DNA of 64,000 nt from Eledone cirrhosa (Eukaryota): NCBI GenBank assembly GCA_964016885.1, contig OZ024740.1, forward strand, positions 279,620,001-279,684,000, written 5' to 3'. The translations under genes and the position numbers were made by a program. Below are positions 28,701 to 64,000 of this stretch, in pieces (within the stretch, counting starts at the first letter, position 1; every line of letters begins with the position of its first letter). Under the pieces are notes generated by a model. The model did no database searches, had not been told where the DNA came from, and saw only the letters and a program-made list of their open reading frames with translations.

Positions 28701-28972
28701 AAAATGGATCCCCCAAATAAAAAATGGATCCCCCAAATAAAACATGGATCCTCCCCAATAAAATATGGATCACCCCCCCAAAAAATGGATCACCCAAATA
28801 AAAAATGGATCACCCAAATAAAAAATGGATCCCCCAAATAAAAAATGGATCACCCAAATAAAGAATGGATCACCCAAATAAAAAATGGACCCCCAAATAA
28901 AAAATGGATCACCCAAATAAAAAATGGATCACCCAAATAAAAAATGGATCCCCGAAATAAAAAATGGATCCG

Positions 28973-29004
28973 CCAAATAAAAAATGGATCCATTTTTTAT
29001 TTGG
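28973..29004. other. Perfect 32-bp palindrome CCAAATAAAAAATGGA|TCCATTTTTTATTTGG at a head-to-head junction (also 32627-32658, 38933-38964, 45580-45611, 49558-49589, 53818-53849)
   Basis: Read directly from the sequence. Copies with one extra A are centred at ~20201, 22537, 24395, 26731 and 30606. Confidence 0.92.
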
Positions 29005-29129
29005 GGGGATCCGTTTTTTATTTGGGCGATGCATTTTTTATTTGGGTGATCCATTTTTTATTTGGGTGATCCATTTTTTATTTGGGGGATCCATTTTTTA
29101 TTTGGGCGATCCATTTTTTATTTGGGTGA

Positions 29130-32100: not shown

Positions 32101-32580
32101 ATCCATTTTTTATTTGGGGGATCAATTTTTTATTTGAGGGATCCATTTTTTATTTGGGGGATCCATTTTTTATTTGATGGATCTCCCAAATAAAAAATAG
32201 ATCACCCAAATAAAAAATGGATCCCCCAAATAAAAAATGGATCACCCAAATAAAAACTGGATCCCCCAAATAAAAAATGGATCCCCCCAAATAAAAAATG
32301 GATCCCCCAAATAAAAAATGGATCCCCCAAATAAAAAATGGATCCCCTAAATAAAAAATGGATCACCCAAATAAAAAATGGATCACCCAAATAAAAAATG
32401 GATCACCCAAATAAAAAATAGATCGCCCAAATAAAAAATGGATCCAAAAAATAAAAAATGGATCACCCAAATAAAAAATGGATCACCCCCCCAAAAAAAT
32501 CGATCCCCAAATAAAAAATGGATCACCCAAATAAAAAATGGATTACCCAAATAAAAAATGGATCCCCCAAATAAAAAATG
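29130..32580. repeat. Direct copy of ~18730-22170 at ~10.4-kb offset
   Basis: Constant offset of 10405 for ORF pairs 19689/30094, 19922/30327, 20082/30487, 20875/31280 and 21053/31458. Both carry the rare variant CCCACATAGAAACTGG. Confidence 0.85.
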
Positions 32581-38500: not shown

Positions 38501-41500
38501 AAAATGGATCCAAAAAATAAAAAATGGATCACCCAAATAAAAAATGGATCACCCCCCCAAAAAAATCGATCCCCAAATAAAAAATGGATCACCCAAATAA
38601 AAAATGGATTACCCAAATAAAAAATGGATCCCCCAAATAAAAAATGGATCACCCAAATAAAAAATGGATCCCCCAAATAAAAAATGGATCCCCCAAATAA
38701 AACATGGATCCTCCCCAATAAAATATGGATCACCCCCCCAAAAAATGGATCACCCAAATAAAAAATGGATCACCCAAATAAAAAATGGATCCCCCAAATA
38801 AAAAATGGATCACCCAAATAAAGAATGGATCACCCAAATAAAAAATGGACCCCCAAATAAAAAATGGATCACCCAAATAAAAAATGGATCACCCAAATAA
38901 AAAATGGATCCCCGAAATAAAAAATGGATCCGCCAAATAAAAAATGGATCCATTTTTTATTTGGGTGATCCATTTTTTATTTAGGGTGATCCGTTTTTAT
39001 TTGGGTGATCCATTTTTTATTTGGGTGATTCCTTTTTTATTTGGGTGATCCATTTTTTATTTGGGTGATCCATTTTTTATTTGAGTGATCCATTCTTTAT
39101 TTGAGGGATCCATTTTTTATTTGGGTGATCCATTTTTTATTTGGGGGATCCATTTTTTATTTGGGCGATCCATTTTTTATTTGGGTGATCCATTTTTTAT
39201 TTGGGTGATCCATTTTTTATTTGGGTGATCCATTTTTTATTTGGGGGATCCATTTTTTATTTGGGGGATCCATTTTTTATTTGGGTGATCCATTTTTTAT
39301 TTGGGGGATCCATTTTTTATTTGGGTGATCCATTTTTTATTTGGGTGATCCATTTTTTATTTGGGTGATCCATTTTTTATTTGAGGGATCCATTTTTTAT
39401 TTTTTGGATCCATTTTTTATTTGGGGGATCCATTTTTTATTTGGGTGATCCATTTTTTATTTGGGTGATCCATTCTTTATTTGGGGTATCCATTTTTTAT
39501 TTCGGGGTTCCATTTTTTATTTGGGGGATCCATCAAATAAAAAATGGATCACCCAAATAAAAAATGGATCATCCAAATAAAAACTGGATCCCCCAAATAA
39601 AAAATGGATCACCCAAATAAAAAATGGATAACCGAAATAGAAAATGGACCCCCAAATAAAAAATGGATCACCCAAATAAAAAATGGATCACCCAAATAAA
39701 AAATGGATCCCCAAATAAAAAATGGATCACCCAAATAAAAAATGGATCCCCCAAATACAAAATGGATCCCCCAAATAAAAAATGGATCCCCCAAATAAAA
39801 AAGGGAACCATTTTTTATTTGGGTGATCCATTTTTTATTTGGGTGATCAATTTTTTATTTGGGTGATTCATTTTTTATTTGGGTGATCCATTTTTAATTT
39901 TTGGGATCCATTTTTTATTTGGTGGATCCATTTTTTATTTGGGTGATCCATTTTTTATTTGGGTGATCCATTTTTTATTTGGGTGATCCATTTTTTATTT
40001 GGGTGATCCATTTTTTATTTGTTGGATCCCCCAAATAAAAAATGGAACCCCCAAATAAAAAATGGATCCCCCAAATAAAAAATGGATCACCCAAATAAAA
40101 AATGGATCCCCCCAAATAAAAAATGGATCACGCAAATAAAAAATGGATCCCCCAAATAAAAAATGGATCCCCCAAATAAAAAATGGATCCCCCAAATAAA
40201 AAATGAATCCCTGAAATAAAAAATGGATCCCCCAAATAAAAAAGGCATCCATTTTTTATTTGGGTGATCCATTTTTTATTTGGGGGATCCATTTTTTATT
40301 TGGGGGATCCATTTTTTATTTTGGGGATCCATTTTTTATTTGGGGGATCCATTTTTTATTTGCGTGATCCATTTTTTATTTGGGGGATCCATTTTTTATT
40401 TGGGTGATCCATTTTTTATTTGGGTGATCCATTTTTTATTTGGGGGTCCATTTTTTTATTTCGGTGATCCATTTTTTATTTGGGTGATCCATTTTTTATT
40501 TTTTGGATCCATTTTTTATTTGGGCGATCCATTTTTTATTTGGGTGATCCATTTTTTATTTGGGTGATCCATTTTTTATTTGGGTGATCCATTTTTTATT
40601 TGGGGGATCCATTTTTTATTTGGGTGATCCATTTTTTATTTGGGGGATCCATTTTTTATTTGGGGCTGCCATTTTTTATTTGGGGGATCCATCAAATAAA
40701 AAATGGATCACCCAAATAAAAACTGGATCCCCCAAATAAAAAATGGATCACCCAAATAAAAAATGGATAATCGAAATAAAAAATGGACCCCCAAATAAAA
40801 AATGGATCACTCAAATAAAAAATGGATCCCGCAAATAAAAAATGAATCCCTGAAATAAAAAATGGATCCCCCAAATAAAAAAGGGATCCATTTTTTATTT
40901 GGGTGATCCATTTTTTATTTGGGGGGATCCGTTTTTTATTTGGGCGATCCATTTTTTATTTGGGTGATCCATTTTTTATTTGGGGGATCCATTTTTTATT
41001 TGGGGGATCCATTTTTTATTTGGGGGATCCATTTTTTATTTGGGTGTTCCATTCTTTATTTGGGGGATCCAGTTTTTATTTGGGTGATCCATTTTTTGTT
41101 TGGGTGATCCATTTTTATTTGGGTGATCCATTTTTTATTTGGGGGATCCATTTTTTATTTGGGGGATCCATTTTTTATTTGGGGGATCCATTTTGTATTT
41201 TTTGGGTCCATTTTTTATTTGGGCGATCCATTTTTTATTTGGGTGATCCATTTTTTATTTGGGGGATCCATTTTTTATTTGGGGGATCCATTTTTTATTT
41301 TGGGGATCCATTTTTTATTTGGGGGATCCATTTTTTATTTGGGTGATTCATTTTTTATTTGGGGGATCAATTTTTTTACGGTGATCCATTTTGTATTTGG
41401 GGGATCCATTTTTTATTTGGGGGTTCCATTTTTTATTTGGGTGATCCATAAAAACAAAAAATGTATCACCCAAATAAAAAGTGGAACACCTAAATAAAAA

Positions 41501-43390
41501 ATGGATCCCCCCAAATAAAAAATGGATCACCCAGATAAAAAATGGATCCCTTTTTTATTTAGCGGATCCATTTTTTATTTCGGGGATCCATTCTTTATTT
41601 GGGGGATCCATTTTTTATTTGGGTGATCCATTTTTCATTTGGGTGATCCATTTTTTATTTGGGGGATCCATTTTTTATTTGGGTGATCCATTTTTTATTT
41701 GGGGGATCCATTTTTTATTTCGGTGATCCATTTTTTATTTGGGTGATCCATTTTTTATTTGGGGTTCCATTTTTTATTTGGGTGATCTATTTTTTATTTG
41801 GTGGATCCATTTTTTATTTGGGGGATCCATTTTTATTTGGGTGATCCATTTTTTATTTGGGTGATCCATTTTTTATTTGGGGGATCAATTTTTTATTTGG
41901 GTGATCCATTTTTTATTTGGGTGATCCATTTTTTATTTGGTGATCCATTTTTTATTTGGGGGATTCATTTTTTATTTGGGTGATCCATTTTTTATTTGGG
42001 TGATCCCTTTTTATTTGAGGTATCCATATTTAATTTGGGTGATCCATTTTTTATTTGGGTGATCCATTTTTTATTTGGGTGATCCATTTTTTATTTGGGT
42101 GATCCATTTTTTATTTGGGGGATCCATTTTTTATTTGGGTGATCCATTTTTTATTTGGGGGATCCATTTTTTATTTGGGGGATCCATTTTTTATTTGGTG
42201 GATCGATTTTTTATTTGGGGGATCCATTTTTTATTTGGGGGATCATATTTTTGGGGGGGATCCATTTTATATTTGGGTGATCCATTTTTTATTTAGGTGA
42301 TCCATTTTTTATTTGGGGGATCCATTTTTTATTTGGGTGATCCATTTTTTATTTGGGCGATCCATTTTTTATTTGGGTGATCCATTTTTTATTTGGGTGA
42401 TCCATTTTTTATTTGGGGGATCAATTTTTTATTTGGGTGATCCATTTTTTATTTGGGTGATCCATTCTTTATTTGGGTAATCCATTTTTTATTTGGGGGA
42501 TCCATTTTTTATTTGGGTGATCCATTTTTTATTTGGAGGATCCATTTTTTATTTGGGCGATCCATTTTTATATGGGGGATCCATTTTTTATTTGGTGGAT
42601 CCATTTTTTATTTAGGGGATCCATTTTTTATTTAGGGGATCCATTTTTTATTTTGGGGATCCATTTTATATTTGGGTGATCCATTTTTTATTTGGGTGAT
42701 CCATTTTTTATTTGGGGGATCCATTTTTTATTTGGGTGATCCATTTTTTATTTGGGGGATCAATTTTTTTTTCGGTGATCCATTTTTTATTTGGGGGATC
42801 CATTTTTTATTTGGGGGTTCCATTTTTTATTTGGGGGATCCATCAAACAAAAAATGGATCACCCAAATAAAAAGTGGATCACCTAAATAAAAAATGGATC
42901 CCCCAAATAAAAAATGTATCACCCAAATAAAAAATGGATCACCCAAACAAAAAATGTATCACCCAAATAAAAAATGGATCACCCAAATAAAAAATGGATC
43001 CACCAAATAAAAAATGGATCCCCCAAATAAAAAATAGATCACACAAATAAAAAATGGATCCCCCAAATAAAAAATGGATCACCCAAATAAAAAATGTATC
43101 ACCCAAATAAAAAATGGATAACCCAAATAAAAAATGGATCCCCCAAATAAAAAATAGATCACCCAAATAAAAATTGGATCACCCAAATAAAAAATGGATT
43201 CCCCAAATAAAAAATGGATCACCCAAATAAAAAATGGATCACCCAAATAAAAAATGGATCCCTTTTTTATTTGGGGGATCCATTTTTTATTTGGGTGATC
43301 AATTTTTTATTTGGGGGATCCATTTTTTATTTGGGGGATCCATATTATATTTGGGTGATCCATTTTTTATTTGGGTGATCCATTTTTTAT
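30950..43390. repeat. Higher-order repeat, two tandem copies of a ~6.1-6.4 kb unit (boundary ~37020)
   Basis: Offsets are 6066-6067 (31280/37347, 32202/38268) and then 6365-6366 (33914/40280, 34537/40903, 35710/42075, 36869/43234). Shared private variants include GGGGCTGCC, AAAGGCATCC and TTTACGGTG. Confidence 0.9.
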
Positions 43391-46300
43391 TTGGGCGATC
43401 CATTTTTTATTTGGGGGATACATTTTTTATTTGGGAGATCCATTTTTTATTTGGGTGATTCATTTTTTATTTGGGTGATCCATTTTTAATTTTTGGGATC
43501 CATTTTTTATTTGGTGGATCCATTTTTTATTTGGGTGATCCATTTTTTATTTGGGTGATCCATTTTTTATTTGGGTCATCCATTTTTTATTTGGGTGATC
43601 CATTTTTTATTTGGGTGATCCATTTTTTATTTGATGGATCCCCAAATATAAAATGGAACCCCCAAATAAAAAATGGATCCCCCAAACAAAAAATGGATCA
43701 CCCAAATAAAAAATGGATCCCCCAAATAAAAAATGGATCCCCCAAATAAAAAATGAATCCCTGAAATAAAAAATGGATCCCCCAAATAAAAAAGGGATCC
43801 ATTTTTTATTTGGGTGATCCATTTTTTATTTAGGGGGATCCGTTTTTTATTTGGGCGATCCATTTTTTATTTGGGTGATCCATTTTTTATTTGGGTGATC
43901 CATTTTTTATTTGGGGGATCCATTTTTTATTTGGGCGATCCATTTTTTATTTGGGTGATCCATTTTTTATTTGGGGGATCCATTTTTTATTGGGGGGATC
44001 CATTTTTTATTTGGGGGATCCATTTTTTATTTAGGGGATCCATTTTTTATTTGGGTGATCCATTTTTTATTTGGGGGATCCAGTTTTTATTTGGCTGATC
44101 CATTTTTTGTTTGGGTGATCCATTTTTATTTTTTGGATCCATTTTTTATTTGGGCGATCCATTTTTTATTTGGGTGATCCATTTTTTATTTGGGGGATCC
44201 ATTTTTTATTTGGGTGATCCATTTTTTATTTGGTGATCCATTTTGTATTTGGGGGATCCATTTTTTATTTGGGTGATCCATTTTTTATTTGGGGGATCCA
44301 TTTTTTATTTGGGTGATCCATTTTTTATTTGGTGATCCATTTTGTATTTGGGGGATCCATTTTTTATTTGGGTGATCCATTTTTTATTTGGGTGATCCAT
44401 TTTTTATTTGAGGGATCCATTTTTTATTTGGGGGATCCATTTTTTATTTGATGGATCTCCCAAATAAAAAATACATCACCCATATAAAAAATGGATCCCC
44501 CAAATAAAAAATGGATCACCCAAATAAAAAATGGATCCCCCAAATAAAAAATGGATCACCCAAATAAAAAGTGGATCACCCAAATAAAAAATGAATCACC
44601 CAAATATAAAATAGATCACCCAAATAAAAAATGGATCCCCCAAATAAAAAATGGATCCCTTTTTTATTTGGCGGATCCATTTTTTATTTGGGGGATCCAT
44701 TATCTATTTGAGTGATCCATTTTTTATTTGTGGGATCCATTTTTTATTTGGGTGATCCATTTTTTATTTGGGGGATCCATTTTTTATTTGGGTGATCCAT
44801 TTTTTATTTGGTGATCCATTTTTTATTTGGGGGATCCATTTTTTATTTGGGTGATCCATTTTTTATTTGGGTGATCCATTTTTTATTTGAGGGATCCATT
44901 TTTTATTTGGGGGATCCATTTTTTATTTGATGGATCTCCCAAATAAAAAATAGATCACCCAAATAAAAAATGGATCCCCCAAATAAAAAATGGATCACCC
45001 AAATAAAAACTGGATCCCCCAAATAAAAAATGGATCCCCCCAAATAAAAAATGGATCCCCCCAAATAAAAAATGGATCCCCTAAATAAAAAATGGATCAC
45101 CCAAATAAAAAATGGATCACCCAAATAAAAAATGGATCACCCAAATAAAAAATAGATCGCCCAAATAAAAAATGGATCCAAAAAATAAAAAATGGATCAC
45201 CCAAATAAAAAATGGATCACCCCCCAAAAAAATCGATCCCCAAATAAAAAATGGATCACCCAAATAAAAAATGGATCCCCCAAATAAAAAATGGATCACC
45301 CAAATAAAAAATGGATCCCCCAAATAAAAAATGGATACCCCAAATAAAAAATGGATCCCCCCCAATAAAAAATGGATCACCCCCCAAAAAAATGGATCAC
45401 CCAAATAAAAAATGGATCACCCAAATAAAAAATGGATCCCCCAAATAAAAAATGGATCACCCAAATAAAAAATGGATCACCCAAATAAAAAATGGACCCC
45501 CAAATAAAAAATGGATCACCCAAATAAAAAATGGATCACACAAATAAAAAATGGATCCCCGAAATAAAAAATGGATCCGCCAAATAAAAAATGGATCCAT
45601 TTTTTATTTGGGTGATCCATTTTTTATTTAGGGTGATCCGTTTTTATTTGGGTGATCCATTTTTTATTTGGGTGATTACTTTTTTATTTGGGTGATCCAT
45701 TTTTTATTTGGGTGATCCATTTTTTATTTGAGTGATCCATTCTTTATTTGAGGGATCCATTTTTTATTTGGGTGATCCATTTTTTATTTGGGGGATCCAT
45801 TTTTTATTTGGGCGATCCATTTTTTATTTGGGTGATCCATTTTTTATTTGGGTGATCCATTTTTTATTTGGGGAATCCATTTTTTATTTGGGGGATCCAT
45901 TTTTTATTTGGGTGATCCATTTTTTATTTGGGGGATCCATTTTTAATTTGGGTGATCCATTTTTTATTTGGGTGATCCATTTTTTATTTGGGTGATCCAT
46001 TTTTTATTTGAGGGATCCATTTTTTATTTTTTGGATCCATTTTTTATTTGGGGGATCCATTTTTTATTTGGGTGATCCATTTTTTATTTGGGTGATCCAT
46101 TCTTTATTTGGGGTATCCATTTTTTATTTCGGGGTTCCATTTTTTATTTGGGGGATCCATCAAATAAAAAATGGATCACCCAAATAAAAAATGGATCATC
46201 CAAATAAAAACTGGATCCCCCAAATAAAAAATGGATCACCCAAATAAAAAATGGATAACCGAAATAAAAAATGGACCCCCAAATAAAAAATGGATCACCC

Positions 46301-49300
46301 AAATAAAAAATGGATCACCCAAATAAAAAATGGATCCCCCAAATAAAAAATGGATCACCCAAATAAAAAATGGATCCCCCAAATACAAAATGGATCCCCC
46401 AAATAAAAAATGGATCCCCCAAATAAAAAAGGGAACCATTTTTTATTTGGGTGATCCATTTTTTATTTGGGTGATCAATTTTTTATTTGGGTGATTCATT
46501 TTTTATTTGGGTGATCCATTTTTAATTTTTGGGATCCATTTTTTATTTGGTGGATCCATTTTTTATTTGGGTGATCCATTTTTTATTTGGGTGATCCATT
46601 TTTTATTTGAGGGATCCATTTTTTATTTGGGGGATCCATTTTTTATTTGATGGATCTCCCAAATTAAAAATAGATCACCCAAATAAAAAATGGATCCCCC
46701 AAATAAAAAATGGATCACCCAAATAAAAACTGGATCCCCCAAATAAAAAATGGATCCCCCCAAATAAAAAATGGATCCCCCCAAATAAAAAATGGATCCC
46801 CTAAATAAAAAATGGATCACCCAAATAAAAAATGGATCACCCAAATAAAAAATGGATCACCCAAATAAAAAATAGATCGCCCAAATAAAAAATGGATCCA
46901 AAAAATAAAAAATGGATCGCCCAAATAAAAAATGGATCCCCCAAATAAAAAATGGATCACCCAAATAAAAAATGGATCACCCAAATAAAAAATGGATCGC
47001 CCAAATAAAAAACGGATCCCCCTAAATAAAAAATGGATCACCCAAATAAAAAATGGATCCCTTTTTTATTTGGGGGATCCATTTTTTATTTCAGGGATTC
47101 ATTTTTTATTTGGGGGATCCATTTTTTATTTGGTGGATCCATTTTTTATTTGGGTGATCCATTTTTTGTTTGGGGGATCCATTTTTTATTTGGGGGTTCC
47201 ATTTTATATTTGGGGATCCATCAAATAAAAAATGGATCACCCAAATAAAAAATGGATCACCCAAATAAAAAATGGATCCCCCAAATAAAAAATGGATCCC
47301 CCAAATAAAAAATGAATCCCTGAAATAAAAAATGGATCCCCCAAATAAAAAATGAATCCCTGAAATAAAAAATGGATCCCCCAAATAAAAAATGGATCCC
47401 CCAAATAAAAAATGGATCACCCAAATAAAAAATGGATCCCTTTTTTATTTGGGGGATCCATTTTTTATTTCAGGGATTCATTTTTTATTTGGGGGATCCA
47501 TTTTTTATTTCAGGGATTCATTTTTTATTTGGGGGATCCATTTTTTATTTGGGGGATCCATTTTTTATTTGGGTGATCCATTTTTTATTTGGGTGATCCA
47601 TTTTTTATTTGATGGATCCCCAAATATAAAATGGAACCCCCAAATAAAAAATGGATCCCCCAAACAAAAAATGGATCACCCAAATAAAAAATGGATCCCC
47701 CAAATAAAAAATGGATCCCCCAAATAAAAAATGAATCCCTGAAATAAAAAATGGATCCCCCAAATAAAAAAGGGATCCATTTTTTATTTGGGTGATCCAT
47801 TTTTTATTTAGGGGGATCCGTTTTTTATTTGGGCGATCCATTTTTTATTTGGGTGATCCATTTTTTATTTGGGTGATCCATTTTTTATTTGGGGGATCCA
47901 TTTTTTATTTGGGCGATCCATTTTTTATTTGGGTGATCCATTTTTTATTTGGGGGATCCATTTTTTATTGGGGGGATCCATTTTTTATTTGGGGGATCCA
48001 TTTTTTATTTAGGGGATCCATTTTTTATTTGGGTGATCCATTTTTTATTTGGGGGATCCAGTTTTTATTTGGCTGATCCATTTTTTGTTTGGGTGATCCA
48101 TTTTTATTTTTTGGATCCATTTTTTATTTGGGCGATCCATTTTTTATTTGGGTGATCCATTTTTTATTTGGGGGATCCATTTTTTATTTGGGTGATCCAT
48201 TTTTTATTTGGTGATCCATTTTGTATTTGGGGGATCCATTTTTTATTTGGGTGATCCATTTTTTATTTGGGGGATCCATTTTTTATTTGGGTGATCCATT
48301 TTTTATTTGGTGATCCATTTTGTATTTGGGGGATCCATTTTTTATTTGGGTGATCCATTTTTTATTTGGGTGATCCATTTTTTATTTGAGGGATCCATTT
48401 TTTATTTGGGGGATCCATTTTTTATTTGATGGATCTCCCAAATAAAAAATACATCACCCAAATAAAAAATGGATCCCCCAAATAAAAAATGGATCACCCA
48501 AATAAAAAATGGATCCCCCAAATAAAAAATGGATCACCCAAATAAAAAGTGGATCACCCAAATAAAAAATGAATCACCCAAATATAAAATAGATCACCCA
48601 AATAAAAAATGGATCCCCCAAATAAAAAATGGATCCCTTTTTTATTTGGCGGATCCATTTTTTATTTGGGGGATCCATTATCTATTTGAGTGATCCATTT
48701 TTTATTTGTGGGATCCATTTTTTATTTGGGTGATCCATTTTTTATTTGGGGGATCCATTTTTTATTTGGGTGATCCATTTTTTATTTGGTGATCCATTTT
48801 TTATTTGGGGGATCCATTTTTTATTTGGGTGATCCATTTTTTATTTGGGTGATCCATTTTTTATTTGAGGGATCCATTTTTTATTTGGGGGATCCATTTT
48901 TTATTTGATGGATCTCCCAAATAAAAAATAGATCACCCAAATAAAAAATGGATCCCCCAAATAAAAAATGGATCACCCAAATAAAAACTGGATCCCCCAA
49001 ATAAAAAATGGATCCCCCCAAATAAAAAATGGATCCCCCCAAATAAAAAATGGATCCCCTAAATAAAAAATGGATCACCCAAATAAAAAATGGATCACCC
49101 AAATAAAAAATGGATCACCCAAATAAAAAATAGATCGCCCAAATAAAAAATGGATCCAAAAAATAAAAAATGGATCACCCAAATAAAAAATGGATCACCC
49201 CCCCAAAAAATCGATCCCCAAATAAAAAATGGATCACCCAAATAATAAATGGATCCCCCAAATAAAAAATGGATCACCCAAATAAAAAATGGATCCCCCA

Positions 49301-49395
49301 AATAAAAAATGGATCCCCCAAATAAAAAATGGATCCCCCCCAATAAAAAATGGATCACCCCCCAAAAAAATGGATCACCCAAATAAAAAATGGAT
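40898..49395 (+). repeat. Left arm (~8.5 kb) of giant inverted duplication
   Basis: ORFs mirror those in 50012-58513 on the opposite strand with a near-constant coordinate sum of 99409-99430, e.g. 42672..42890+/56539..56757-, 43607..43822-/55607..55822+, 48881..49102-/50307..50528+. Confidence 0.93.
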
Positions 49396-50011
49396 CACCC
49401 AAATAAAAAATGGATCCCCCAAATAAAAAATGGATCACCCAAATAAAAAATGGATCACCCAAATAAAAAATGGACCCCCAAATAAAAAATGGATCACCCA
49501 AATAAAAAATGGATCACACAAATAAAAAATGGATCCCCGAAATAAAAAATGGATCCGCCAAATAAAAAATGGATCCATTTTTTATTTGGGTGATCCATTT
49601 TTTATTTAGGGTGATCCGTTTTTATTTGGGTGATCCATTTTTTATTTGGGTGATTCCTTTTTTATTTGGGTGATCCATTTTTTATTTGGGTGATCCATTT
49701 TTTATTTGAGTGATCCATTCTTTATTTGAGGGATCCATTTTTTATTTGGGTGATCCATTTTTTATTTGGGGGATCCATTTTTTATTTGGGCGATCCATTT
49801 TTTATTTGGGTGATCCATTTTTTATTTGGGTGATCCATTTTTTATTTGGGGGATCCATTTTTTATTTGGGGGATCCATTTTTTATTTGGGTGATCCATTT
49901 TTTATTTGGGGGATCCATTTTTAATTTGGGTGATCCATTTTTTATTTGGTTGATCCATTTTTTATTTGGGTGATCCATTTTTTATTTGAGGGATCCATTT
50001 TTTATTTTTTG
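43570..50011. repeat. Direct duplication with 3978-bp offset (~43570-46030 repeated at ~47550-50011)
   Basis: ORF pairs 43607/47585, 43814/47792, 44903/48881, 45117/49095 and 45732/49710 all differ by 3978. Confidence 0.9.
46903..47930. repeat. Near-perfect ~1-kb palindrome (arms ~490 bp, ~48-bp spacer, centre ~47416)
   Basis: Mirror ORF pairs sum to 94833: 46992..47228+/47605..47841-, 47033..47248+/47585..47800-, 47106-/47727+. The doubled TGAATCCCTG variant is mirrored as doubled CAGGGATTCA. Confidence 0.9.
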
Positions 50012-53000
50012 GATCCATTTTTTATTTGGGTGATCCATTTATTTGGGGGGTGATCCATTTTTTATTGGGGGGGGATCCATTTTTTATTTGGGGGATCCAT
50101 TTTTTATTTGGGGGATCCATTTTTTATTTGGGTGATCCATTTTTTATTTGGGGGATCCATTTTTTATTTGGGTGATCCATTTTTTATTTGGGGATCGATT
50201 TTTTTGGGGGGTGATCCATTTTTTATTTGGGTGATCCATTTTTTATTTTTTGGATCCATTTTTTATTTGGGCGATCTATTTTTTATTTGGGTGATCCATT
50301 TTTTATTTGGGTGATCCATTTTTTATTTGGGTGATCCATTTTTTATTTAGGGGATCCATCTTTTATTTGGGGGGATCCATTTTTTATTTGGGGGGATCCA
50401 TTTTTTATTTGGGGGATCCAGTTTTTATTTGGGTGATCCATTTTTTATTTGGGGGATCCATTTTTTATTTGGGTGATCTATTTTTTATTTGGGAGATCCA
50501 TCAAATAAAAAATGGATCCCCCAAATAAAAAATGGATCCCTCAAATAAAAAATGGATCACCCAAATAAAAAATGGATCACCCAAATAAAAAATGGATCCC
50601 CCAAATAAAAAATGGATAACCAAATAAAAAATGGATCACCCAAATAAAAAATGGATCCCCCAAATAAAAAATGGATCACCCAAATAAAAAATGGATCCCA
50701 CAAATAAAAAATGGATCACTCAAATAGATAATGGATCCCCCAAATAAAAAATGGATCCGCCAAATAAAAAAGGGATCCATTTTTTATTTGGGGGATCCAT
50801 TTTTTATTTGGGTGATCTATTTTATATTTGGGTGATTCATTTTTTATTTGGGTGATCCACTTTTTATTTGGGTGATCCATTTTTTATTTGGGGGATCCAT
50901 TTTTTATTTGGGTGATCCATTTTTTATTTGGGGGATCCATTTTTTATTTGGGTGATGTATTTTTTATTTGGGAGATCCATCAAATAAAAAATGGATCCCC
51001 CAAATAAAAAATGGATCCCTCAAATAAAAAATGGATCACCCAAATAAAAAATGGATCACCCAAATAAAAAATGGATCCCCCAAATACAAAATGGATCACC
51101 AAATAAAAAATGGATCACCCAAATAAAAAATGGATCCCCCAAATAAAAAATGGATCACCCAAATAAAAAATGGATCCCCCAAATACAAAATGGATCACCA
51201 AATAAAAAATGGATCACCCAAATAAAAAATGGATCCCCCAAATAAAAAATGGATCACCCAAATAAAAAATGGATCGCCCAAATAAAAAATGGATCCAAAA
51301 AATAAAAATGGATCACCCAAACAAAAAATGGATCAGCCAAATAAAAACTGGATCCCCCAAATAAAAAATGGATCACCCAAATAAAAAATGGATCCCCTAA
51401 ATAAAAAATGGATCCCCCAAATAAAAAATGGATCCCCCCAATAAAAAATGGATCCCCCAAATAAAAAATGGATCACCCAAATAAAAAATGGATCGCCCAA
51501 ATAAAAAATGGATCCCCCAAATAAAAAATGGATCACCCAAATAAAAAATGGATCACCCAAATAAAAAATGGATCGCCCAAATAAAAAACGGATCCCCCTA
51601 AATAAAAAATGGATCACCCAAATAAAAAATGGATCCCTTTTTTATTTGGGGGATCCATTTTTTATTTCAGGGATTCATTTTTTATTTGGGGGATCCATTT
51701 TTTATTTGGGGGATCCATTTTTTATTTGGGTGATCCATTTTTTGTTTGGGGGATCCATTTTTTATTTGGGGGTTCCATTTTATATTTGGGGATCCATCAA
51801 ATAAAAAATGGATCACCCAAATAAAAAATGGATCACCCAAATAAAAAATGGATCCCCCAAATAAAAAATGGATCCCCCAAATAAAAAATGAATCCCTGAA
51901 ATAAAAAATGGATCCCCCAAATAAAAAATGAATCCCTGAAATAAAAAATGGATCCCCCAAATAAAAAAGGGATCCATTTTTTATTTGGGTGATCCATTTT
52001 TTATTTGGGGGATCCATTTTTTATTTGGGGGATCCATTTTTTATTTCAGGGATTCATTTTTTATTTGGGGGATCCATTTTTTATTTCAGGGATTCATTTT
52101 TTATTTGGGGGATCCATTTTTTATTTGGGGGATCCATTTTTTATTTGGGTGATCCATTTTTTATTTGGGTGATCCATTTTTTATTTGATGGATCCCCAAA
52201 TATAAAATGGAACCCCCAAATAAAAAATGGATCCCCCAAACAAAAAATGGATCACCCAAATAAAAAATGGATCCACCAAATAAAAAATGGATCCCCCAAA
52301 TAAAAAATGAATCCCTGAAATAAAAAATGGATCCCCCAAATAAAAAAGGGATCCATTTTTTATTTGGGTGATCCATTTTTTATTTAGGGGGATCCGTTTT
52401 TTATTTGGGCGATCCATTTTTTATTTGGGTGATCCATTTTTTATTTGGGTGATCCATTTTTTATTTGGGGGATCCATTTTTTATTTGGGCGATCCATTTT
52501 TTATTTTTTGGATCCATTTTTTATTTGGGCGATCTATTTTTTATTTGGGTGATCCATTTTTTATTTGGGTGATCCATTTTTTATTTGGGTGATCCATTTT
52601 TTATTTAGGGGATCCATTTTTTATTTGGGGGGATCCATTTTTTATTTGGGGGGATCCATTTTTTATTTGGGGGATCCAGTTTTTATTTGGGTGATCCATT
52701 TTTTATTTGGGGGATCCATTTTTTATTTGGGTGATCTATTTTTAATTTGGGAGATCCATCAAATAAAAAATGGATCCCCCAAATAAAAAATGGATCCCTC
52801 AAATAAAAAATGGATCACCCAAATAAAAAATGGATCACCCAAATAAAAAATGGATCACCCAAATAAAAAATGGATCCACCAAATAAAAAATGGATCCCAA
52901 AAATTAAAAATGGATCACCCAAATAAAAAATGAATCACCCAAATAAAAAATTGATCACCCAAATAAAAAATGGATCACCCAAATAAAAAATGGTTCCCTT

Positions 53001-56000
53001 TTTTATTTGGGGGATCCATTTTTTATTTGGGGGATCCATTTTGTATTTGGGGGATCCATTTTTTATTTGGGTGATCCATTTTTTATTTGGGGGATCCATT
53101 TTTTATTTGGGTGATCCATTTTTTATTTGGGTGATCCATTTTTTATTTGGGGGTCCATTTTTTATTTCGGTTATCCATTTTTTATTTGGGTGATCCATTT
53201 TTTATTTGGGGGATCCAGTTTTTATTTGGATGATCCATTTTTTATTTGGGTGATCCATTTTTTATTTGATGGATCCCCCAAATAAAAAATGGAACCCCGA
53301 AATAAAAAATGGATACCCCAAATAAAGAATGGATCACCCAAATAAAAAATGGATCACCCAAATAAAAAATGGATCCCCCAAATAAAAAATGGATCCAAAA
53401 AATAAAAAATGGATCCCTCAAATAAAAAATGGATCACCCAAATAAAAAATGGATCACCCAAATAAAAAATGGATCACCCAAATTAAAAATGGATCCCCCA
53501 AATAAAAAATGGATCACCCAAATAAAAAATGGATCCCCCAAATAAAAAATGGATCCCCCAAATAAAAAATGGATCACCCAAATAAAAAATGGATCACCCA
53601 AATAAAAAATGGATCGCCCAAATAAAAAATGGATCCCCCAAATAAAAAATGGATCACCCAAATAAAAAATGGATCCCTCAAATAAAGAATGGATCACTCA
53701 AATAAAAAATGGATCACCCAAATAAAAAATGGATCACCCAAATAAAAAAGGAATCACCCAAATAAAAAATGGATCACCCAAATAAAAACGGATCACCCTA
53801 AATAAAAAATGGATCACCCAAATAAAAAATGGATCCATTTTTTATTTGGCGGATCCATTTTTTATTTCGGGGATCCATTTTTTATTTGTGTGATCCATTT
53901 TTTATTTGGGTGATCCATTTTTTATTTGGGGGTCCATTTTTTATTTGGGTGATCCCGTTTTTATTTGGGTGATCCATTGTTTATTTGGGGGATCCATTTT
54001 TTATTTGGGTGATCCATTTTTTATTTGGGTGATCCATTTTTTGGGGGGGTGATCCATTTTTTATTGGGGGGGATCCATTTTTTATTTGGGGTATCCATTT
54101 TTTATTTGGGGGATCCATTTTTTATTTGGGTGATCCATTTTTTATTTGGGGGATCCATTTTTTATTTGGGTGATCCATTTTTTATTTGGGGATCGATTTT
54201 TTGGGGGGGTGATCCATTTTTTATTTGGGTGATCCATTTTTTATTTTTTGGATCCATTTTTTATTTGGGCGATCTATTTTTTATTTGGGTGATCCATTTT
54301 TTATTTGGGTGATCCATTTTTTATTTGGGTGATCCATTTTTTATTTAGGGGATCCATTTTTTATTTGGGGGGATCCATTTTTTATTTGGGGGGATCCATT
54401 TTTTATTTGGGGGATCCAGTTTTTATTTGGGTGATCCATTTTTTATTTGGGGGATCCATTTTTTATTTGGGTGATCTATTTTTTATTTGGGAGATCCATC
54501 AAATAAAAAATGGATCCCCCAAATAAAAAATGGATCCCTCAAATAAAAAATGGATCACCCAAATAAAAAATGGATCACCCAAATAAAAAATGGATCCCCC
54601 AAATAAAAAATGTATCACCAAATAAAAAATGGATCACCCAAATAAAAAATGGATCCCCCAAATAAAAAATGGATCACCCAAATAAAAAATGGATCCCACA
54701 AATAAAAAATGGATCACTCAAATAGATAATGGATCCCCCAAATAAAAAATGGATCCGCCAAATAAAAAAAGGATCCATTTTTTATTTGGGGGATCCATTT
54801 TTTATTTGGGTGATCTATTTAATATTTGGGTGATTCATTTTTTATTTGGGTGATCCACTTTTTATTTGGGTGATCCATTTTTTATTTGGGGGATCCATTT
54901 TTTATTTGGGTGATCCATTTTTTATTTGGGGGATCCATTTTTTATATGGGTGATGTATTTTTTATTTGGGAGATCCATCAAATAAAAAATGGATCCCCCA
55001 AATAAAAAATGGATCCCTCAAATAAAAAATGGATCACCCAAATAAAAAATGGATCACCCAAATAAAAAATGGATCCCCCAAATACAAAATGGATCACCAA
55101 ATAAAAAATGGATCACCCAAATAAAAAATGGATCCCCCAAATAAAAAATGGATCACCCAAATAAAAAATGGATCCCCCAAATACAAAATGGATCACCAAA
55201 TAAAAAATGGATCACCCAAATAAAAAATGGATCCCCCAAATAAAAAATGGATCACCCAAATAAAAAATGGATCGCCCAAATAAAAAATGGATCCAAAAAA
55301 TAAAAATGGATCACCCAAACAAAAAATGGATCAGCCAAATAAAAACTGGATCCCCCAAATAAAAAATGGATCACCCAAATAAAAAATGGATCCCCTAAAT
55401 AAAAAATGGATCCCCCAAATAAAAAATGGATCCCCCCAATAAAAAATGGATCCCCCAAATAAAAAATGGATCACCCAAATAAAAAATGGATCGCCCAAAT
55501 AAAAAATGGATCCCCCAAATAAAAAATGGATCACCCAAATAAAAAATGGATCACCCAAATAAAAAATGGATCGCCCAAATAAAAAACGGATCCCCCTAAA
55601 TAAAAAATGGATCACCCAAATAAAAAATGGATCCCTTTTTTATTTGGGGGATCCATTTTTTATTTCAGGGATTCATTTTTTATTTGGGGGATCCATTTTT
55701 TATTTGGGGGATCCATTTTTTATTTGGGTGATCCATTTTTTGTTTGGGGGATCCATTTTTTATTTGGGGGTTCCATTTTATATTTGGGGATCCATCAAAT
55801 AAAAAATGGATCACCCAAATAAAAAATGGATCACCCAAATAAAAAATGGATGACCCAAATAAAAAATGGATCACCCAAATAAAAAATGGATCACCCAAAT
55901 AAAAAATGGATCCACCAAATAAAAAATGGATCCCAAAAATTAAAAATGGATCACCCAAATAAAAAATGAATCACCCAAATAAAAAATGGATCTCCCAAAT

Positions 56001-58513
56001 AAAAAATGTATCCCCCAAATAAAAAATGGATCGCCCAAATAAAAAATGGATCACCCAAATAAAAAATGGATCACCCAAATATAATATGGATCCCCCAAAT
56101 AAAAAATGGATCCCCCAAATAAAAAATTGATCACCCAAATAAAAAATGGATCCCCCAAATAAAAAAGGGATCCATTTTTTATTTGGGTGATCCATTTTTT
56201 ATTTGGGTGATCCATTTTTTATTTGGGGAATCCATTTTTTATTTGGGTGATCCAATTTTTATTTGGGTGATCTATTTTTTATTTGGGGGATCCATTTTTT
56301 ATTTGGGTTATCCATTTTTTATTTGGGTGATCCATTTTTTATTTGGGTGATCCATTTTTTATTTGGGGGATCCATTTTTTATTTGTGTGATCTATTTTTT
56401 ATTTGGGGGATCCATTTTTTATTTGGTGGATCCATTTTTTATTTGGGTGATCCATTTTTTATTTGGGTGATACATTTTTTGTTTGGGTGATCCATTTTTT
56501 ATTTGGGTGATACATTTTTTATTTGGGGGATCCATTTTTTATTTAGGTGATCCACTTTTTATTTGGGTGATCCATTTTTTGTTTGATGGATCCCCCAAAT
56601 AAAAAATGGAACCCCCAAATAAAAAATGGATCCCCCAAATAAAAAATGGATCACCGAAAAAAAAATTGATCCCCCAAATAAAAAATGGATCACCCAAATA
56701 AAAAATGGATCCCCCAAATAAAAAATGGATCACCCAAATAAAAAATGGATCACCCAAATATAAAATGGATCCCCAAAATAAAAAATGGATCCCCTAAATA
56801 AAAAATGGATCCCCTAAATAAAAAATGGATCCACCAAATAAAAAATGGATCCCCCATATAAAAATGGATCGCCCAAATAAAAAATGGATCCTCCAAATAA
56901 AAAATGGATCACCCAAATAAAAAATGGATCCCCCAAATAAAAAATGGATTACCCAAATAAAAAATGGATCACCCAAATAAAAAATGGATCACCCAAATAA
57001 AAAATTGATCCCCCAAATAAAAAATGGATCACCCAAATAAAAAATGGATCACCCAAATAAAAAATGGATCGCCCAAATAAAAAATGGATCACCCAAATAA
57101 AAAATGGATCCCCCAAATAAAAAATGGATCACCTAAATAAAAAATGGATCACCCAAATATAAAATGGATCCCCCCCAAAAATATGATCCCCCAAATAAAA
57201 AATGGATCCCCCAAATAAAAAATCGATCCACCAAATAAAAAATGGATCCCCCAAATAAAAAATGGATCCCCCAAATAAAAAATGGATCACCCAAATAAAA
57301 AATGAATCCCCCAAATAAAAAATGGATCACCCAAATAAAAAATGGATCACCCAAATAAAAAATGGATCACCCAAATAAAAAATGGATCACCCAAATTAAA
57401 TATGGATACCTCAAATAAAAAGGGATCACCCAAATAAAAAATGGATCACCCAAATAAAAAATGAATCCCCCAAATAAAAAATGGATCACCAAATAAAAAA
57501 TGGATCACCCAAATAAAAAATGGATCACCCAAATAAAAAATTGATCCCCCAAATAAAAAATGGATCACCCAAATAAAAAATGGATCACCCAAATAAAAAA
57601 TGGATCCCCCAAATAAAAAATGGATCCACCAAATAAAAAATAGATCACCCAAATAAAAAATGGAACCCCAAATAAAAAATGGATCACCCAAATAAAAAAT
57701 GGATCACCGAAATAAAAAATGGATCCCCCAAATAAAAAATGGATCACCCAAATAAAAAATGGATCCCCCAAATAAAAAATGGATCACCCAAATGAAAAAT
57801 GGATCACCCAAATAAAAAATGGATCCCCCAAATAAAGAATGGATCCCCGAAATAAAAAATGGATCCGCTAAATAAAAAAGGGATCCATTTTTTATCTGGG
57901 TGATCCATTTTTTATTTGGGGGGATCCATTTTTTATTTAGGTGTTCCACTTTTTATTTGGGTGATACATTTTTTGTTTTTATGGATCACCCAAATAAAAA
58001 ATGGAACCCCCAAATAAAAAATGGATCCCCCAAATACAAAATGGATCACCGTAAAAAAAATTGATCCCCCAAATAGAAAATGAATCACCCAAATAAAAAA
58101 TGGATCCCCCAAATAAAAAATGGATCCCCAAAATAAAAAATGGATCCCCCAAATAAAAAATGGATCCCCCAAATAAAAAATGGATCACCCAAATAAAAAA
58201 TGGATCGCCCAAATAAAAAATGGACCCCAAAAATACAAAATGGATCCCCCAAATAAAAAATGGATCCCCCAAATAAAAAATGGATCACCCAAATAAAAAT
58301 GGATCACCCAAACAAAAAATGGATCACCCAAATAAAAACTGGATCCCCCAAATAAAGAATGGAACACCCAAATAAAAAATGGATCCCCCAAATAAAAAAT
58401 GGATCCCCCAAATAAAAAATGGATCCCCCAAATAAAAAATGGATCACCCAAATAAAAAATGGATCGCCCAAATAAAAAACGGATCCCCCCAAATAAAAAA
58501 TGGATCACCCAAA
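50012..58513 (-). repeat. Right arm (~8.5 kb) of giant inverted duplication
   Basis: Reverse complement of 40898-49395 including private variants: GGGTCATCC ~43563 / GGATGACCC ~55848, CCCATATAAAA ~44479 / TTTTATATGGG ~54940, GATCCATAAAAACAAA ~41443 / TTTGTTTTTATGGATC ~57972. Confidence 0.93.
51479..52506. repeat. Second copy of the ~1-kb palindrome (centre ~51992) inside the right giant arm
   Basis: Mirror ORF pairs sum to 103985: 51568..51804+/52181..52417- and 51609..51824+/52161..52376-. Confidence 0.9.
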
Positions 58514-61500
58514 CAAAAACTGGATCACCCAAATAAAAAATGGATCACCCAAATAAAAAATGGATCCCCCAAATAAAAAATGGATCACCCAAATAAAAAA
58601 TGGATCCCCCAAATAAAAAATGGATCTGCCAAATAAAAAATGGATCACACAAATAAAAAATGGATCCCCCAAATAAAAATGGATCCGCCAAATAAAAAAT
58701 GGATCACACAAATAAAAAATGGATCCCCCCCAAAAAATGGATCACCCAACTAAAAAATGGATCACCTAAATAAAAAATGGATCCCCCAAATAAAAAATGG
58801 ATCACCCAAACAAAAACTGGATCACCCAAATAAAAAATGGATCACCCAAATAAAAAATGGATCCCCCAAATAAAAAATGGATCACCCAAATAAAAAATGG
58901 ATCACCCAAATGTAAAATGGATCCCCCAAATAAAAAATGGAACCCCCAAATAAAAAATGGATCCCCCAAATAAAAAATGGATCCAACAAATAAAAAATGG
59001 ATCACCCAAATAAAAAATGGATCACCCAAATAAAAAATGGATCACCCAAATAAAAAATGGATCCCCCAAATAAAAAATGGATCACCCAAATAAAAAATGG
59101 ATACCCCAAATAAAAAATGGATCCACCAAATAAAAAATGGATCACCCAAATAAAAAATGGATCACCCAAATGTAAAATGGATCCCCCAAATAAAAATAGG
59201 GTCCCCCAAATAAAAATAGATCCCCCAAATAAAAAATGGATCCAACAAATAAAAAATGGATCACCAAAATAAAAAATGGGTCACCAAAATAAAAAATGGA
59301 TCTCCCAAATAAAAAATGGATCACCCAAATAAAAAATGGATCACCCAAATAAAAAATGGATCCCCCAAATAAAAAATGGATCACCCAAATCAAAAATGGA
59401 TCACCCAAATAAAAAATGGATCACCCAAATAAAAAATGGATCACCCAAATAAAAAATGTATCACCCAAATAAAAAATGGATCCGCCAAATAAAAAATGGA
59501 TCACCCAAATAAAAAATGGTTCCCCCAAATAAAAAATGGATCTGCCAAATAAAAAATGGATCACAAATAAAAAATGGATCCCCCAAATAAAAATGGATCC
59601 GCCAAATAAAAAATGGATCACACAAATAAAAAATGGATCCCCCAAATAAAAATGGATCACCCAACTAAAAAATGGATCACCTAAATAAAAAATGGATCCC
59701 CAAATAAAAAATGGATCCTCCAAATGTAAAATGGATCCGCCAAATAAAAAATGGAACCCCCAAATAAAAAATGGATCCCCCAAATAAAAAATGGATCCAA
59801 CAAATAAAAAATGGATCACCCAAATGTAAAATGGATCCCCCAAATAAAAAATGGAACCCCCAAATAAAAAATGGATCCCACAAATAAAAAATGGATCCAA
59901 CAAATAAAAAATGGATCACCCAAATAAAAAATGGATCACCCAAATAAAAAATGGATCACCCAAATAAAAAATGGATCCCCCAAATAAAGAATGATCACCC
60001 AAATAAAAAATGGATACCCCAAATAAAAAATGGATCCACCAAATAAAAAATGGATCACCCAAATAAAAAATGGATTACCCAAATGTAAAATGGATCCCCC
60101 AAATAAAAATAGGGTCCCCCAAATAAAAATGGATCCCGCAAATAAAAAATGGATCCAACAAATAAAAAATGAATCACCCAAATAAAAAATGGATCACCCA
60201 AATCAAAAATGGATCTCCCAAATAAAAAATGGATCCCCCAAATAAAAAATGGATCACCCAAATAAAAAATGGATCCCCCAAATAAAAAATGGATCACCCA
60301 AATCAAAAATGGATCACCCAAATAAAAAATGGATCCCCCAAATAAAAAATGGATCACCCAAATAAAAAATGGATCACCCAAATAAAAAATGGATCACCCA
60401 AATAAAAAATTGGATCACCCAAATAAAAAATGGATCCCCCAAATAAAAAATGGATCACACAAATAAAATATGGATCACCCAAATAAAAAATGGATCACCC
60501 AAATAAAAAATGGATCCCCCAAATAAAAAATGGATCACCCAAATAAAAAATGGATCCCCCAAATAAAAAATGGATCACCCAAATAAAAAATGGATCGCCC
60601 AAATAAAAAACGGATCCCCCCAAATAAAAAATGGATCACCCAAACAAAAACTGGATCACCCAAATAAAAAATGGATCGCCCAAATAAAAAACGGATCCCC
60701 CCAAATAAAAAATGGATCACCCAAACAAAAACTGGATCTGCCAAATAAAAAATGGATCACACAAATAAAAAATGGATCCCCCAAATAAAAATGGATCCGC
60801 CAAATAAAAAATGGATCACACAAATAAAAAATGGATCCCCCCCCAAAAAATGGATCACCCAACTAAAAAATGGATCACCTAAATAAAAAATGGATCCCCC
60901 AAATAAAAAATGGATCACCCAAACAAAAACTGGATCACCCAAATAAAAAATGGATCACCCAAATAAAAAATGGATCCCCCAAATAAAAAATGGATCACCC
61001 AAATAAAAAATGGATCACCCAAATGTAAAATGGATCCCCCAAATAAAAAATGGAACCCCCAAATAAAAAATGGATCCCCCAAATAAAAAATGGATCCAAC
61101 AAATAAAAAATGGATCACCCAAATAAAAAATGGATCACCCAAATAAAAAATGGATCACCCAAATAAAAAATGGATCCCCCAAATAAAAAATGGATCACCC
61201 AAATAAAAAATGGATACCCCAAATAAAAAATGAATCCACCAAATAAAAAATGGATCACCCAAATAAAAAATGGATCACCCAAATGTAAAATGGATCCCCC
61301 AAATAAAAATAGGGTCCCCCAAATAAAAATAGATCCCCCAAATAAAAAATGGATCCAACAAATAAAAAATGGATCACCAAAATAAAAAATGGGTCACCAA
61401 AATAAAAAATGGATCTCCCAAATAAAAAATGGATCACCCAAATAAAAAATGGATCACCCAAATAAAAAATGGATCCCCCAAATAAAAAATGGATCACCCA

Positions 61501-64000
61501 AATCAAAAATGGATCACCCAAATAAAAAATGGATCACCCAAATAAAAAATGGATCACCCAAATAAAAAATGTATCACCCAAATAAAAAATGGATCCGCCA
61601 AATAAAAAATGGATCACCCAAATAAAAAATGGTTCCCCCAAATAAAAAATGGATCTGCCAAATAAAAAATGGATCACAAATAAAAAATGGATCCCCCAAA
61701 TAAAAATGGATCCGCCAAATAAAAAATGGATCACACAAATAAAAAATGGATCCCCCAAATAAAAATGGATCACCCAACTAAAAAATGGATCACCTAAATA
61801 AAAAATGGATCCCCAAATAAAAAATGGATCCTCCAAATGTAAAATGGATCCGCCAAATAAAAAATGGAACCCCCAAATAAAAAATGGATCCCCCAAATAA
61901 AAAATGGATCCAACAAATAAAAAATGGATCACCCAAATGTAAAATGGATCCCCCAAATAAAAAATGGAACCCCCAAATAAAAAATGGATCCCACAAATAA
62001 AAAATGGATCCAACAAATAAAAAATGGATCACCCAAATAAAAAATGGATCACCCAAATAAAAAATGGATCACCCAAATAAAAAATGGATCCCCCAAATAA
62101 AGAATGGATCACCCAAATAAAAAATGGATACCCCAAATAAAAAATGGATCCACCAAATAAAAAATGGATCACCCAAATAAAAAATGGATTACCCAAATGT
62201 AAAATGGATCCCCCAAATAAAAATAGGGTCCCCCAAATAAAAATGGATCCCGCAAATAAAAAATGGATCCAACAAATAAAAAATGAATCACCCAAATAAA
62301 AAATGGATCACCCAAATCAAAAATGGATCTCCCAAATAAAAAATGGATCCCCCAAATAAAAAATGGATCACCCAAATAAAAAATGGATCCCCCAAATAAA
62401 AAATGGATCACCCAAATCAAAAATGGATCACCCAAATAAAAAATGGATCCCCCAAATAAAAAATGGATCACCCAAATAAAAAATGGATCACCCAAATAAA
62501 AAATGGATCACCCAAATAAAAAATTGGATCACCCAAATAAAAAATGGATCCCCCAAATAAAAAATGGATCACACAAATAAAATATGGATCACCCAAATAA
62601 AAAATGGATCACCCAAATAAAAAATGGATCCCCCAAATAAAAAATGGATCACCCAAATAAAAAATGGATCCCCCAAATAAAAAATGGATCTGCCAAATAA
62701 AAAATGGATCACACAAATAAAAAATGGATCCCCCAAATAAAAATGGATCCGCCAAATAAAAAATGGATCACACAAATAAAAAATGGATCCCCCAAATAAA
62801 AATGGATCACCCAACTAAAAAATGGATCAGCTAAATAAAAAATGGATCCCCCAAATAAAAAATGGATCACCCAAATAAAAAATGGATCCCCCAAATAAAA
62901 AATGGATCCCCCAAATAAAAAATGGAACCCCAAATAAAAAATGGATCCCCCAAATAAAAAATGGATCCCCCAAATAAAAAATGGATCCAACAAATAAAAA
63001 ATGGATCACCCAAATAAAAAATGGATCCCCCAAATAAAAAATGGATCACCCAAACAAAAACTGGATCACCCAAATAAAAAATGGATCACCCAAATAAAAA
63101 ATGGATCCCCCAAATAAAAAATGGATCACCCAAATAAAAAATGGATCACCCAAATGTAAAATGGATCCCCCAAATAAAAAATGGAACCCCCAAATAAAAA
63201 ATAGATCCCCCAAATAAAAAATGGATCCAACAAATAAAAAATGGATCACCCAAATAAAAAATGGATCACCCAAATAAAAAATGGATCACCCAAATAAAAA
63301 ATGGATCACCCAAATAAAAAATGGATCCCCCAAATAAAAAATGGATCACCCAAATAAAAAATGGATACCCCAAATAAAAAATGGATCCACCAAATAAAAA
63401 ATGGATCACCCAAATAAAAAATGGATCACCCAAATGTAAAATGGATCACCCAAATGTAAAATGGACCCCCCAAATAAAAATAGGTTCCCCCAAATAAAAA
63501 TAGATCCCCCAAATAAAAAATGGATCCAACAAATAAAAAATGGATCACCAAAATAAAAAATGGGTCACCAAAATAAAAAATGGATCTCCCAAATAAAAAA
63601 TGGATCACCCAAATAAAAAATGGATCACCCAAATAAAAAATGGATCCCCCAAATAAAAAATGTATCACCCAAATAAAAAATGGATCCCCCAAATAAAAAA
63701 TGGATCACCCAAATAAAAAATGGTTCCCCCAAATAAAAAATGTATCTGCCAAATAAAAAATGGATCACACAAATAAAAAATGGATCCCCCAAATAAAAAT
63801 GGATCCGCCAAATAAAAAATGGATCACACAAATAAAAAATGGATCCCCCAAATAAAAATGGATCACCCAACTAAAAAATGGATCACCTAAATAAAAAATG
63901 GATCCCCAAATAAAAAATGGATCCCCCAAATAAAAAATGGATCCGCCAAATAAAAAATGGATCACACAAATAAAAAATGGATCCCCCAAATAAAAATGGA
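57985..64000 (-). repeat. Unidirectional (A-rich on +) satellite domain; from ~58513 a distinct subfamily with a ~2.1-kb higher-order repeat (~2.6 copies)
   Basis: No orientation switch in 6 kb. ORF offsets are 2113-2114 (58802/60915, 59142/61255, 59421/61534, 60055/62169) and 2131 (60915/63046). Characteristic variants are AAATGTAAAA, CCAACTAAAA, AAATCAAAAA, GGATCTGCC and AATAGGGTCCCC. Confidence 0.92.

Follow-up and report, generated by a model that had tools for sequence, protein, structure and literature searches.

The stretch analysed here is a 64-kb window of Eledone cirrhosa contig OZ024740.1, and the whole of it is a tandem repeat of a single 20-bp unit with a GC content of 32% (Table 1). 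A two-strand Viterbi parse resolves 3206 monomers of 228 types, all between 17 and 24 bp long, in 134 orientation blocks separated by 133 strand switches. The inner blocks have a median length of 270 bp, and the array is further organised in higher-order repeats with a period of about 1.6-6.4 kb; exact direct matches of at least 200 bp number 214 in the window. The spacing of GATC holds to multiples of about 20 bp across the switches (2886 of the 2889 intervals are listed, all of them -3 to +4 off a multiple), and the one place where the parse jumps within a strand, 6120, is a lengthened A run. An Rfam scan of the window returned 0 matches, the two-monomer motif has no exact match in bacterial and archaeal genomes, and text searches of the literature gave no match to the satellite motif. 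A 160-aa open frame at 59421-59903 (- strand) lies within the repeat and was taken as spurious. At 11854-15426 and 15388-18960 there is a 3573-bp direct repeat with 0 mismatches, which reflects either duplication in the very recent past or an expansion made in assembly. At the distal end, 22 of the 43 monomer types found in 58514-64000 are private to that array. The giant palindrome described below sits where this distal reverse array meets a mixed domain biased towards forward blocks (24-38% reverse per 8 kb).

Table 1. Features of the satellite array, in window coordinates
Feature	Position	Strand	Basis or remark
20-bp satellite array	1..64000	.	TRF, two-strand Viterbi parse, direct matches, monomer strings
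Left arm, giant inverted duplication	40898..49396	+	Exact inverted matches, painting
615-bp spacer	49397..50011	+	Unrearranged higher-order repeat continuation
Right arm, inverted copy of 40898-49396	50012..58513	-	Exact inverted matches
Inner join, 19 bp common to both templates, pairs with 49378-49396	50012..50030	+	Template comparison
Outer join to distal reverse array, 28 bp common	58486..58513	-	Template comparison
Left arm, 1-kb palindrome (0.5-kb arms)	46903..47392	+	Exact inverted matches
Centre, 48 bp, ends in reused B junction	47393..47440	.	Exact repeat match
Right arm, 1-kb palindrome	47441..47930	+	Exact inverted matches
Join, inverted piece back to forward higher-order repeat, 31 bp common	47556..47586	+	Templates reconstructed
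Distal single-orientation array	58514..64000	-	Own variants; 2113-2114 bp repeat

Three near-identical types of inversion site, which we call A, B, and C, cover all 133 switches. The 67 forward-to-reverse switches all share a single junction, A, which is 20 bp long and asymmetric (31 A+, 36 A-); a symmetric, perfect forward-to-reverse junction was found at 0 of the 67. Among the 66 reverse-to-forward switches, 55 are B (24 B+ and 31 B-, point variants included) and 11 are C. The region 1-40880 alone holds 89 of the switches, with A and B each present in both orientations. C is a perfect palindrome centre; since it differs from B by a single base and shares with one B lineage the rare GCGGA monomer and neighbour 17, C would most simply be a reverted B. 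In both founder junctions the GATC phase is preserved, and one or two base changes separate them from a perfect palindrome centre. If perfect centres are unstable, the perfect form is expected to be rare, as it is in the census (C at 11/66, the perfect forward-to-reverse form at 0/67). The predicted hairpin energy at the junctions is -31.5 to -37.8 kcal/mol per 100 nt versus -5.1 in a uniform block, and B and C are predicted to form near-perfect hairpins.

The A+ and A- lineages have in common a rare family, that of monomer 8, two places upstream of the junction. Taken together with the B-lineage markers on C, this flank sharing suggests that a single founder inversion, through its two ends, is the likely ancestor of all 133 switches. 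An asymmetric junction that occurs in both orientations also implies that later inversion-type events took place and left no third junction type behind. There are only two junction lineages, each flipped both ways, and tandem duplication alone cannot give that. This argument from two-way junctions is the strongest support for the idea of scarless inverted duplication, and is independent of the coordinates in the first-pass annotation.

That annotation had proposed that in-register homologous template switching between opposite-facing blocks generates inverted duplications without a scar, and that such switching would explain many inversions with few junction types. We used copy painting, in which each stretch is assigned to earlier sequence as a direct or an inverted copy. 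Painted in this way, 95 of the 133 switches are direct copies, 25 are inverted copies, and 13 have no earlier template. Head-to-tail duplication of higher-order repeats has thus spread most of the switches, and the count does not support the explanatory reach claimed for inversion. What does stand of in-register switching is the register itself, the lack of any new junction, and the two-way junctions; it is not the main source of switches. Six painting runs (two template sets by three penalty settings) returned the identical two large inverted copies, and none of the six contained a further inverted copy of at least eight monomers. The painting also contained inverted pieces only 3-7 monomers long; these were set aside as not significant, except for two at 47377-47556. 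In 1-40880, no inverted segment scored 14 or more, i.e., none rose above the shuffle background (one of five shuffles gave 3). We take it that old flips in that region have eroded and that its switch numbers come from tandem amplification.

The logic of junction persistence was explored with a toy model that starts with one founder inversion; its parameters were chosen by us, and its 300 replicates show logic and not rates. With tandem events only, junctions survived in 6/300 replicates and both orientations of A were present in 0/300. When scarless inverted duplication was added at three rates, junctions survived in 18, 31, and 55 of 300, and both orientations were found in 9, 18, and 20. Mean junction density rose from 0.9 per 1000 monomers (tandem only) to 2.1, 2.3, and 1.8, and was thus not monotonic with rate. 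The claim that the process is self-reinforcing therefore holds for survival in the toy model, but the effect is modest and tandem-only survivors reached densities of up to 81 per 1000 monomers; in an earlier simulation of 40 replicates, the effect was absent at the lowest rate. The predicted outcome is a weak positive feedback on the persistence of junctions, which would not be the chief source of their number. In a non-homologous version of the model, new junction types build up, to a median of 3-5. These simulations also bear on the proposal that new junction types do arise and are removed, with selection keeping A and B as cruciform or protein-binding sites. The stable hairpins predicted at the junctions speak for such a role, as does the reading of conserved inversion sites in Tribolium as possibly functional (PMC13081366). 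However, the neutral model, which has no selection, yields both orientations of two junction types, and the point variants in junction monomers resemble those in other monomers, so that we regard selection for A and B as highly improbable.

The larger of the two inverted copies is the 8.5-kb duplication. Its inner join sits within the forward block 49574-50496, with the nearest switch 450 bp off: the direct template (offset 3978) is exact through 50030, and the inverted template (partner 49396) is exact from 50012. Over its 615 bp, the spacer between the arms is colinear with the direct repeat copy that lies at offset 3978, from which it differs by 3 mismatches, and it contains one reverse-to-forward switch, a C junction at about 49571-49574. 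To the right of C, from 49574, the sequence follows the direct repeat without mirroring; an ungapped mirror test gave 86/326 mismatches, a figure that indels inflate and that carries no weight here. The right arm is exact to 58513, within the reverse block 57979-64000, where the 28 bp of the outer join are common with the distal-array template. An alternative outer template at offset 4064 was rejected, there being no overlap at the join. The outer end of the template falls 15 bp short of the B junction at 40883. The large dyads of this array are copied blocks of mixed orientation, and their centres lie off any switch. The outer join is spanned by four monomers, and about one repeat period downstream, at 60555-60736, this group of four is inserted twice, which suggests that the outer join predates this insertion.

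The 1-kb palindrome has its left join at 46903-46918, a window of 16 bp common to both templates within the reverse block 46650-47061. Its centre reuses a B junction, 47403-47510 being identical to 47024-47131 over 108 bp. The centre is scarless, yet a 10-bp gap, filled by the second commonest monomer, parts two exact matches, and it is not a clean two-template join. The inner template end coincides exactly with the B junction at 47441. Position 47556 is the start of the direct duplicate at offset 3978 (43578-46052 to 47556-50030), and between 46.9 and 47.9 kb an inverted piece lies between two direct copies at that offset. The templates of the 47556 join and of the centre were assigned by reconstruction, using the two short inverted pieces at 47377-47556. 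These results locate four features much as the first-pass annotation had them, namely the start of the right giant arm near 50012 in the middle of a forward block, the giant outer edge near 58513 and the left edge of the 1-kb palindrome near 46903, both inside uniform reverse blocks, and the central repeat of 47032-47120 at 47411-47500, which proved longer than the 90 bp claimed. A rare T-rich monomer (21/3206) adjoins both the left join of the 1-kb palindrome (46897-46916) and the giant inner join (49994-50013); this is partly detection bias, because rare variants bound the join windows.

Together, these two large events in one window provide five mapped joins. Both inverted duplications start and end in monomer register and within uniform blocks, and at four of the five joins the templates share windows of 19, 16, 31, and 28 bp. 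For comparison, in-register pairing of opposite-facing monomers gives a median of 19 bp of perfect homology (quartiles 13-29), pairing at any register gives a median of 1 bp, and same-facing fold-back pairings with at least 10 bp of homology make up 0.02% of 20,000 draws. Opposite-facing blocks thus provide homology that is absent from a uniform array and, since the shared lengths match the in-register null, the joins require register and nothing more. The five join windows are covered by 11 monomers, ten of them 20 bp long and one 21 bp; each belongs to an ordinary type with 6-961 copies. A homogeneous array makes any homology-based exchange scarless, and seamless joins therefore show a dependence on homology and no particular pathway. 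The non-trivial facts are that there is no new junction type among 133 switches and no odd-length monomer among 3206.

The joins lie 152, 44, 41, 450, and 520 bp from the nearest switch, compared to a random median of 110 bp. Of the expectation that breakpoints fall in monomer register and away from switches, the first half holds at these joins, whereas the distances are not measurably above random. Likewise, the claim of seamless breakpoints with no new switch agrees with the ordinary monomers and the absence of a new junction, save for the 10-bp gap at the 1-kb centre; and what had been called large inversions do have seamless joins that can be located, but are inverted duplications, not inversions. 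Two of the ten template ends fall within 20 bp of a B junction, as do 4.9% of positions (binomial p of about 0.08, worked by hand and post hoc). As a lead only, this excess hints at junction-triggered stalling instead of position-free switching.

The proximity of two template ends to B junctions could also be cited for a different view, in which inversions arise afresh at the GATC core or at a hairpin-capped junction, their centres are trimmed later, and the few junction types reflect a sequence hotspot. Both junction types do hold the GATC phase and have long predicted hairpins, and C is a perfect palindrome centre. Fresh joins at GATC, however, predict the symmetric forward-to-reverse junctions that the census lacks; C bears the markers of a B lineage, and beyond C at 49574 it is the direct repeat that goes on and not its mirror. 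We consider repeated origin at such a hotspot distinctly improbable.

Pure satellite is error-prone material for assembly, and the perfect 3573-bp direct repeat at 11854-15426 is a reminder of that. The palindromes could in principle be library or assembly artefacts, be they fold-back reads, amplification chimeras, or mis-joined repeat copies, and polymerase chimeras likewise form at inverted homology. The two giant arms, however, differ by 20 substitutions in ~8500 sites, two whole-monomer indels, and three 1-bp indels. Polarised against older copies in 1-40880, 10 of the 20 substitutions are derived on the right arm and 6 on the left, with 4 unpolarised. With private changes on both arms, a mirrored read appears unlikely as the source of the giant palindrome. 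The arm divergence of 0.24% is near that of the adjacent direct duplicate (7/2455), and the giant arm carries a copy of the 1-kb palindrome. A mis-join of two genuinely distinct copies would be compatible with the arm divergence; taking these points together, we give an artefactual origin very little credence. In a comparison of four 1.8-kb unit copies, two shared sites pair as a single duplication and a single subsequent inversion would predict, whereas site 45226 and its partners do not. At 45226, 49204, 50205, and 54203, which mark a G/T-run boundary, the alleles are swapped relative to the expected pairing, through either slippage or arm-to-arm conversion.

We consider that the recent inverted copies were probably made by homology-primed fold-back or template switching between opposite-facing blocks, a reading from sequence to which we assign a probability of about 0.68. 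Junctions A and B would go back to one founder inversion whose ends were joined in phase at the self-complementary GATC core of the monomer, and head-to-tail duplication of higher-order repeats then spread them, as the copy painting shows. With both orientations present, random in-register pairing of opposite-facing monomers offers the homology measured above. A strand end that broke or stalled could pair some hundreds of bases back, in a block of the other orientation, and copy that block in reverse. For the giant duplication, a 3′ end at about 50012-50030 would fold over a 615-nt loop containing junction C and prime at 49378-49396; fold-back needs an orientation change in the spacer, and the single C switch supplies it. 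After copying 8.5 kb, the primed end would re-enter the reverse-facing array at 58486-58513, either by switching templates in register once more or through repair of a break. The expected product contains hybrid monomers and zero new switches, with old junctions flipped (A+ to A-, B+ to B-).

An alternative route to the same arrangement is a tandem duplication followed by a reciprocal crossover of opposite-facing blocks that flips one copy, a later deletion removing the reciprocal join. Such flipping is likewise scarless and in register, direct duplications are plentiful (the 214 matches mentioned above), and small events of this kind could well account for the old A+/A- and B+/B- pairs. We therefore looked for reciprocal joins: none was present in the window for the two joins tested (2/2), while positive controls, i.e., real joins, were recovered. 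In addition, the giant arm enters a different array instead of the expected remainder of the broken block, and each event would require one additional deletion. Because of the missing reciprocal joins and the arm's end in a different array, single-ended fold-back or template switching is favoured over reciprocal flipping, which we think unlikely for the recent copies.

Fold-back and template-switch duplication is a known mechanism, and what differs here is the scarless satellite setting. Human fold-back inverted duplications have spacers of 766-70,466 bp together with inverted homology, and at 3/21 human junctions a switch between oppositely oriented Alu or L1 copies, at homologous positions, gave a hybrid repeat (Hermetz et al. 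2014, PMC3907307). The giant duplication resembles these cases in its unduplicated 615-bp spacer (49397-50011), in the 19-bp inverted homology at the spacer edges (50012-50030 with 49378-49396), and in its hybrid repeat. The human cases, as described there, are single events in unique DNA with a terminal deletion and a dicentric step, whereas here the events are nested in satellite, the homology derives from copies that descend from an earlier inversion, and the far end rejoins an array in register. That the far end joins a different array is compatible with a break, a dicentric, and distal loss, yet is no proof of them. In yeast, ODIRA involves a template switch at closely spaced inverted repeats, which yields interrupted palindromes (PMC10766186). 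The layout at 46.9-47.9 kb, with an inverted piece flanked by direct copies, would fit ODIRA (PMC10766186) and DUP-TRP/INV-DUP (PMC11293582); the giant arm, in contrast, has one such junction and no second direct copy within the window. Its spacer could later have been widened by in-register deletion, as ODIRA predicts (PMC10766186).

Among satellites, the main text on Tribolium madens describes thousands of inversion sites of few types that are perhaps functional, with spread mechanisms as an alternative (PMC13081366). The Tribolium macro-dyad satellites share with the present array many orientation changes and very few, highly similar types of inversion site. Their unit, however, is ~110 bp and their dyads reach tens of kb, whereas here the unit is 20 bp and the median block 270 bp, and multi-kb direct and inverted subarrays that meet at an inversion site, as defined there, are absent from this array. 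The term "template switch" does not occur in the main text of that paper, which does not appear to map scarless secondary breakpoints. Forward and reverse blocks are also mixed in the 23- and 28-bp Chio1/2 satellites of Chionographis (PMC10264360, PMC12722358), and human HSat3 and beta satellite have hundreds of strand switches, termed stochastic by-products of expansion (10.1101/2021.07.12.452052, 10.64898/2026.07.22.740206). The likeness to these mixed-orientation arrays is one of description, and the passages cited give counts or mixtures where we trace junction lineages. For Arabidopsis centromeres, period-preserving indels are reported and inversion goes unmentioned in the main text (10.1101/2025.06.02.657473). 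Within the titles and opening parts of abstracts that our literature searches covered, we found no array whose switches had been traced to one junction pair, and no mapping of scarless secondary breakpoints in satellites.

Strand-switch counts are often taken as inversion counts, and a close likeness among inversion sites is often taken to indicate function. In this array, the 133 switches probably go back to about one junction-making event, and the recent inverted duplications are unmarked at the switches and visible solely in the variant strings. If this is general, counting switches gives a wrong picture of how many rearrangements occurred and where, and conserved junctions have to be judged against a neutral null; scarless fold-back would account neutrally for the "conserved inversion sites" of satellites, without any function of the junction. 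The combination of junction lineages, the two-way asymmetric junction, and variant-string painting is applicable to finished human, beetle, and plant arrays. A broader and more speculative idea, which we hold only tentatively and think rather doubtful as a whole, is that one chance inversion makes its own substrate for scarless fold-back, that the frozen junctions spread selfishly with the B hairpin triggering switches, and that this explains the Tribolium, Chionographis, HSat3, and beta-satellite arrays. If true, one neutral process would lie behind the conserved sites and macro-dyads of Tribolium, the mixed arrays of Chionographis, and the strand switches of human HSat3 and beta satellite.
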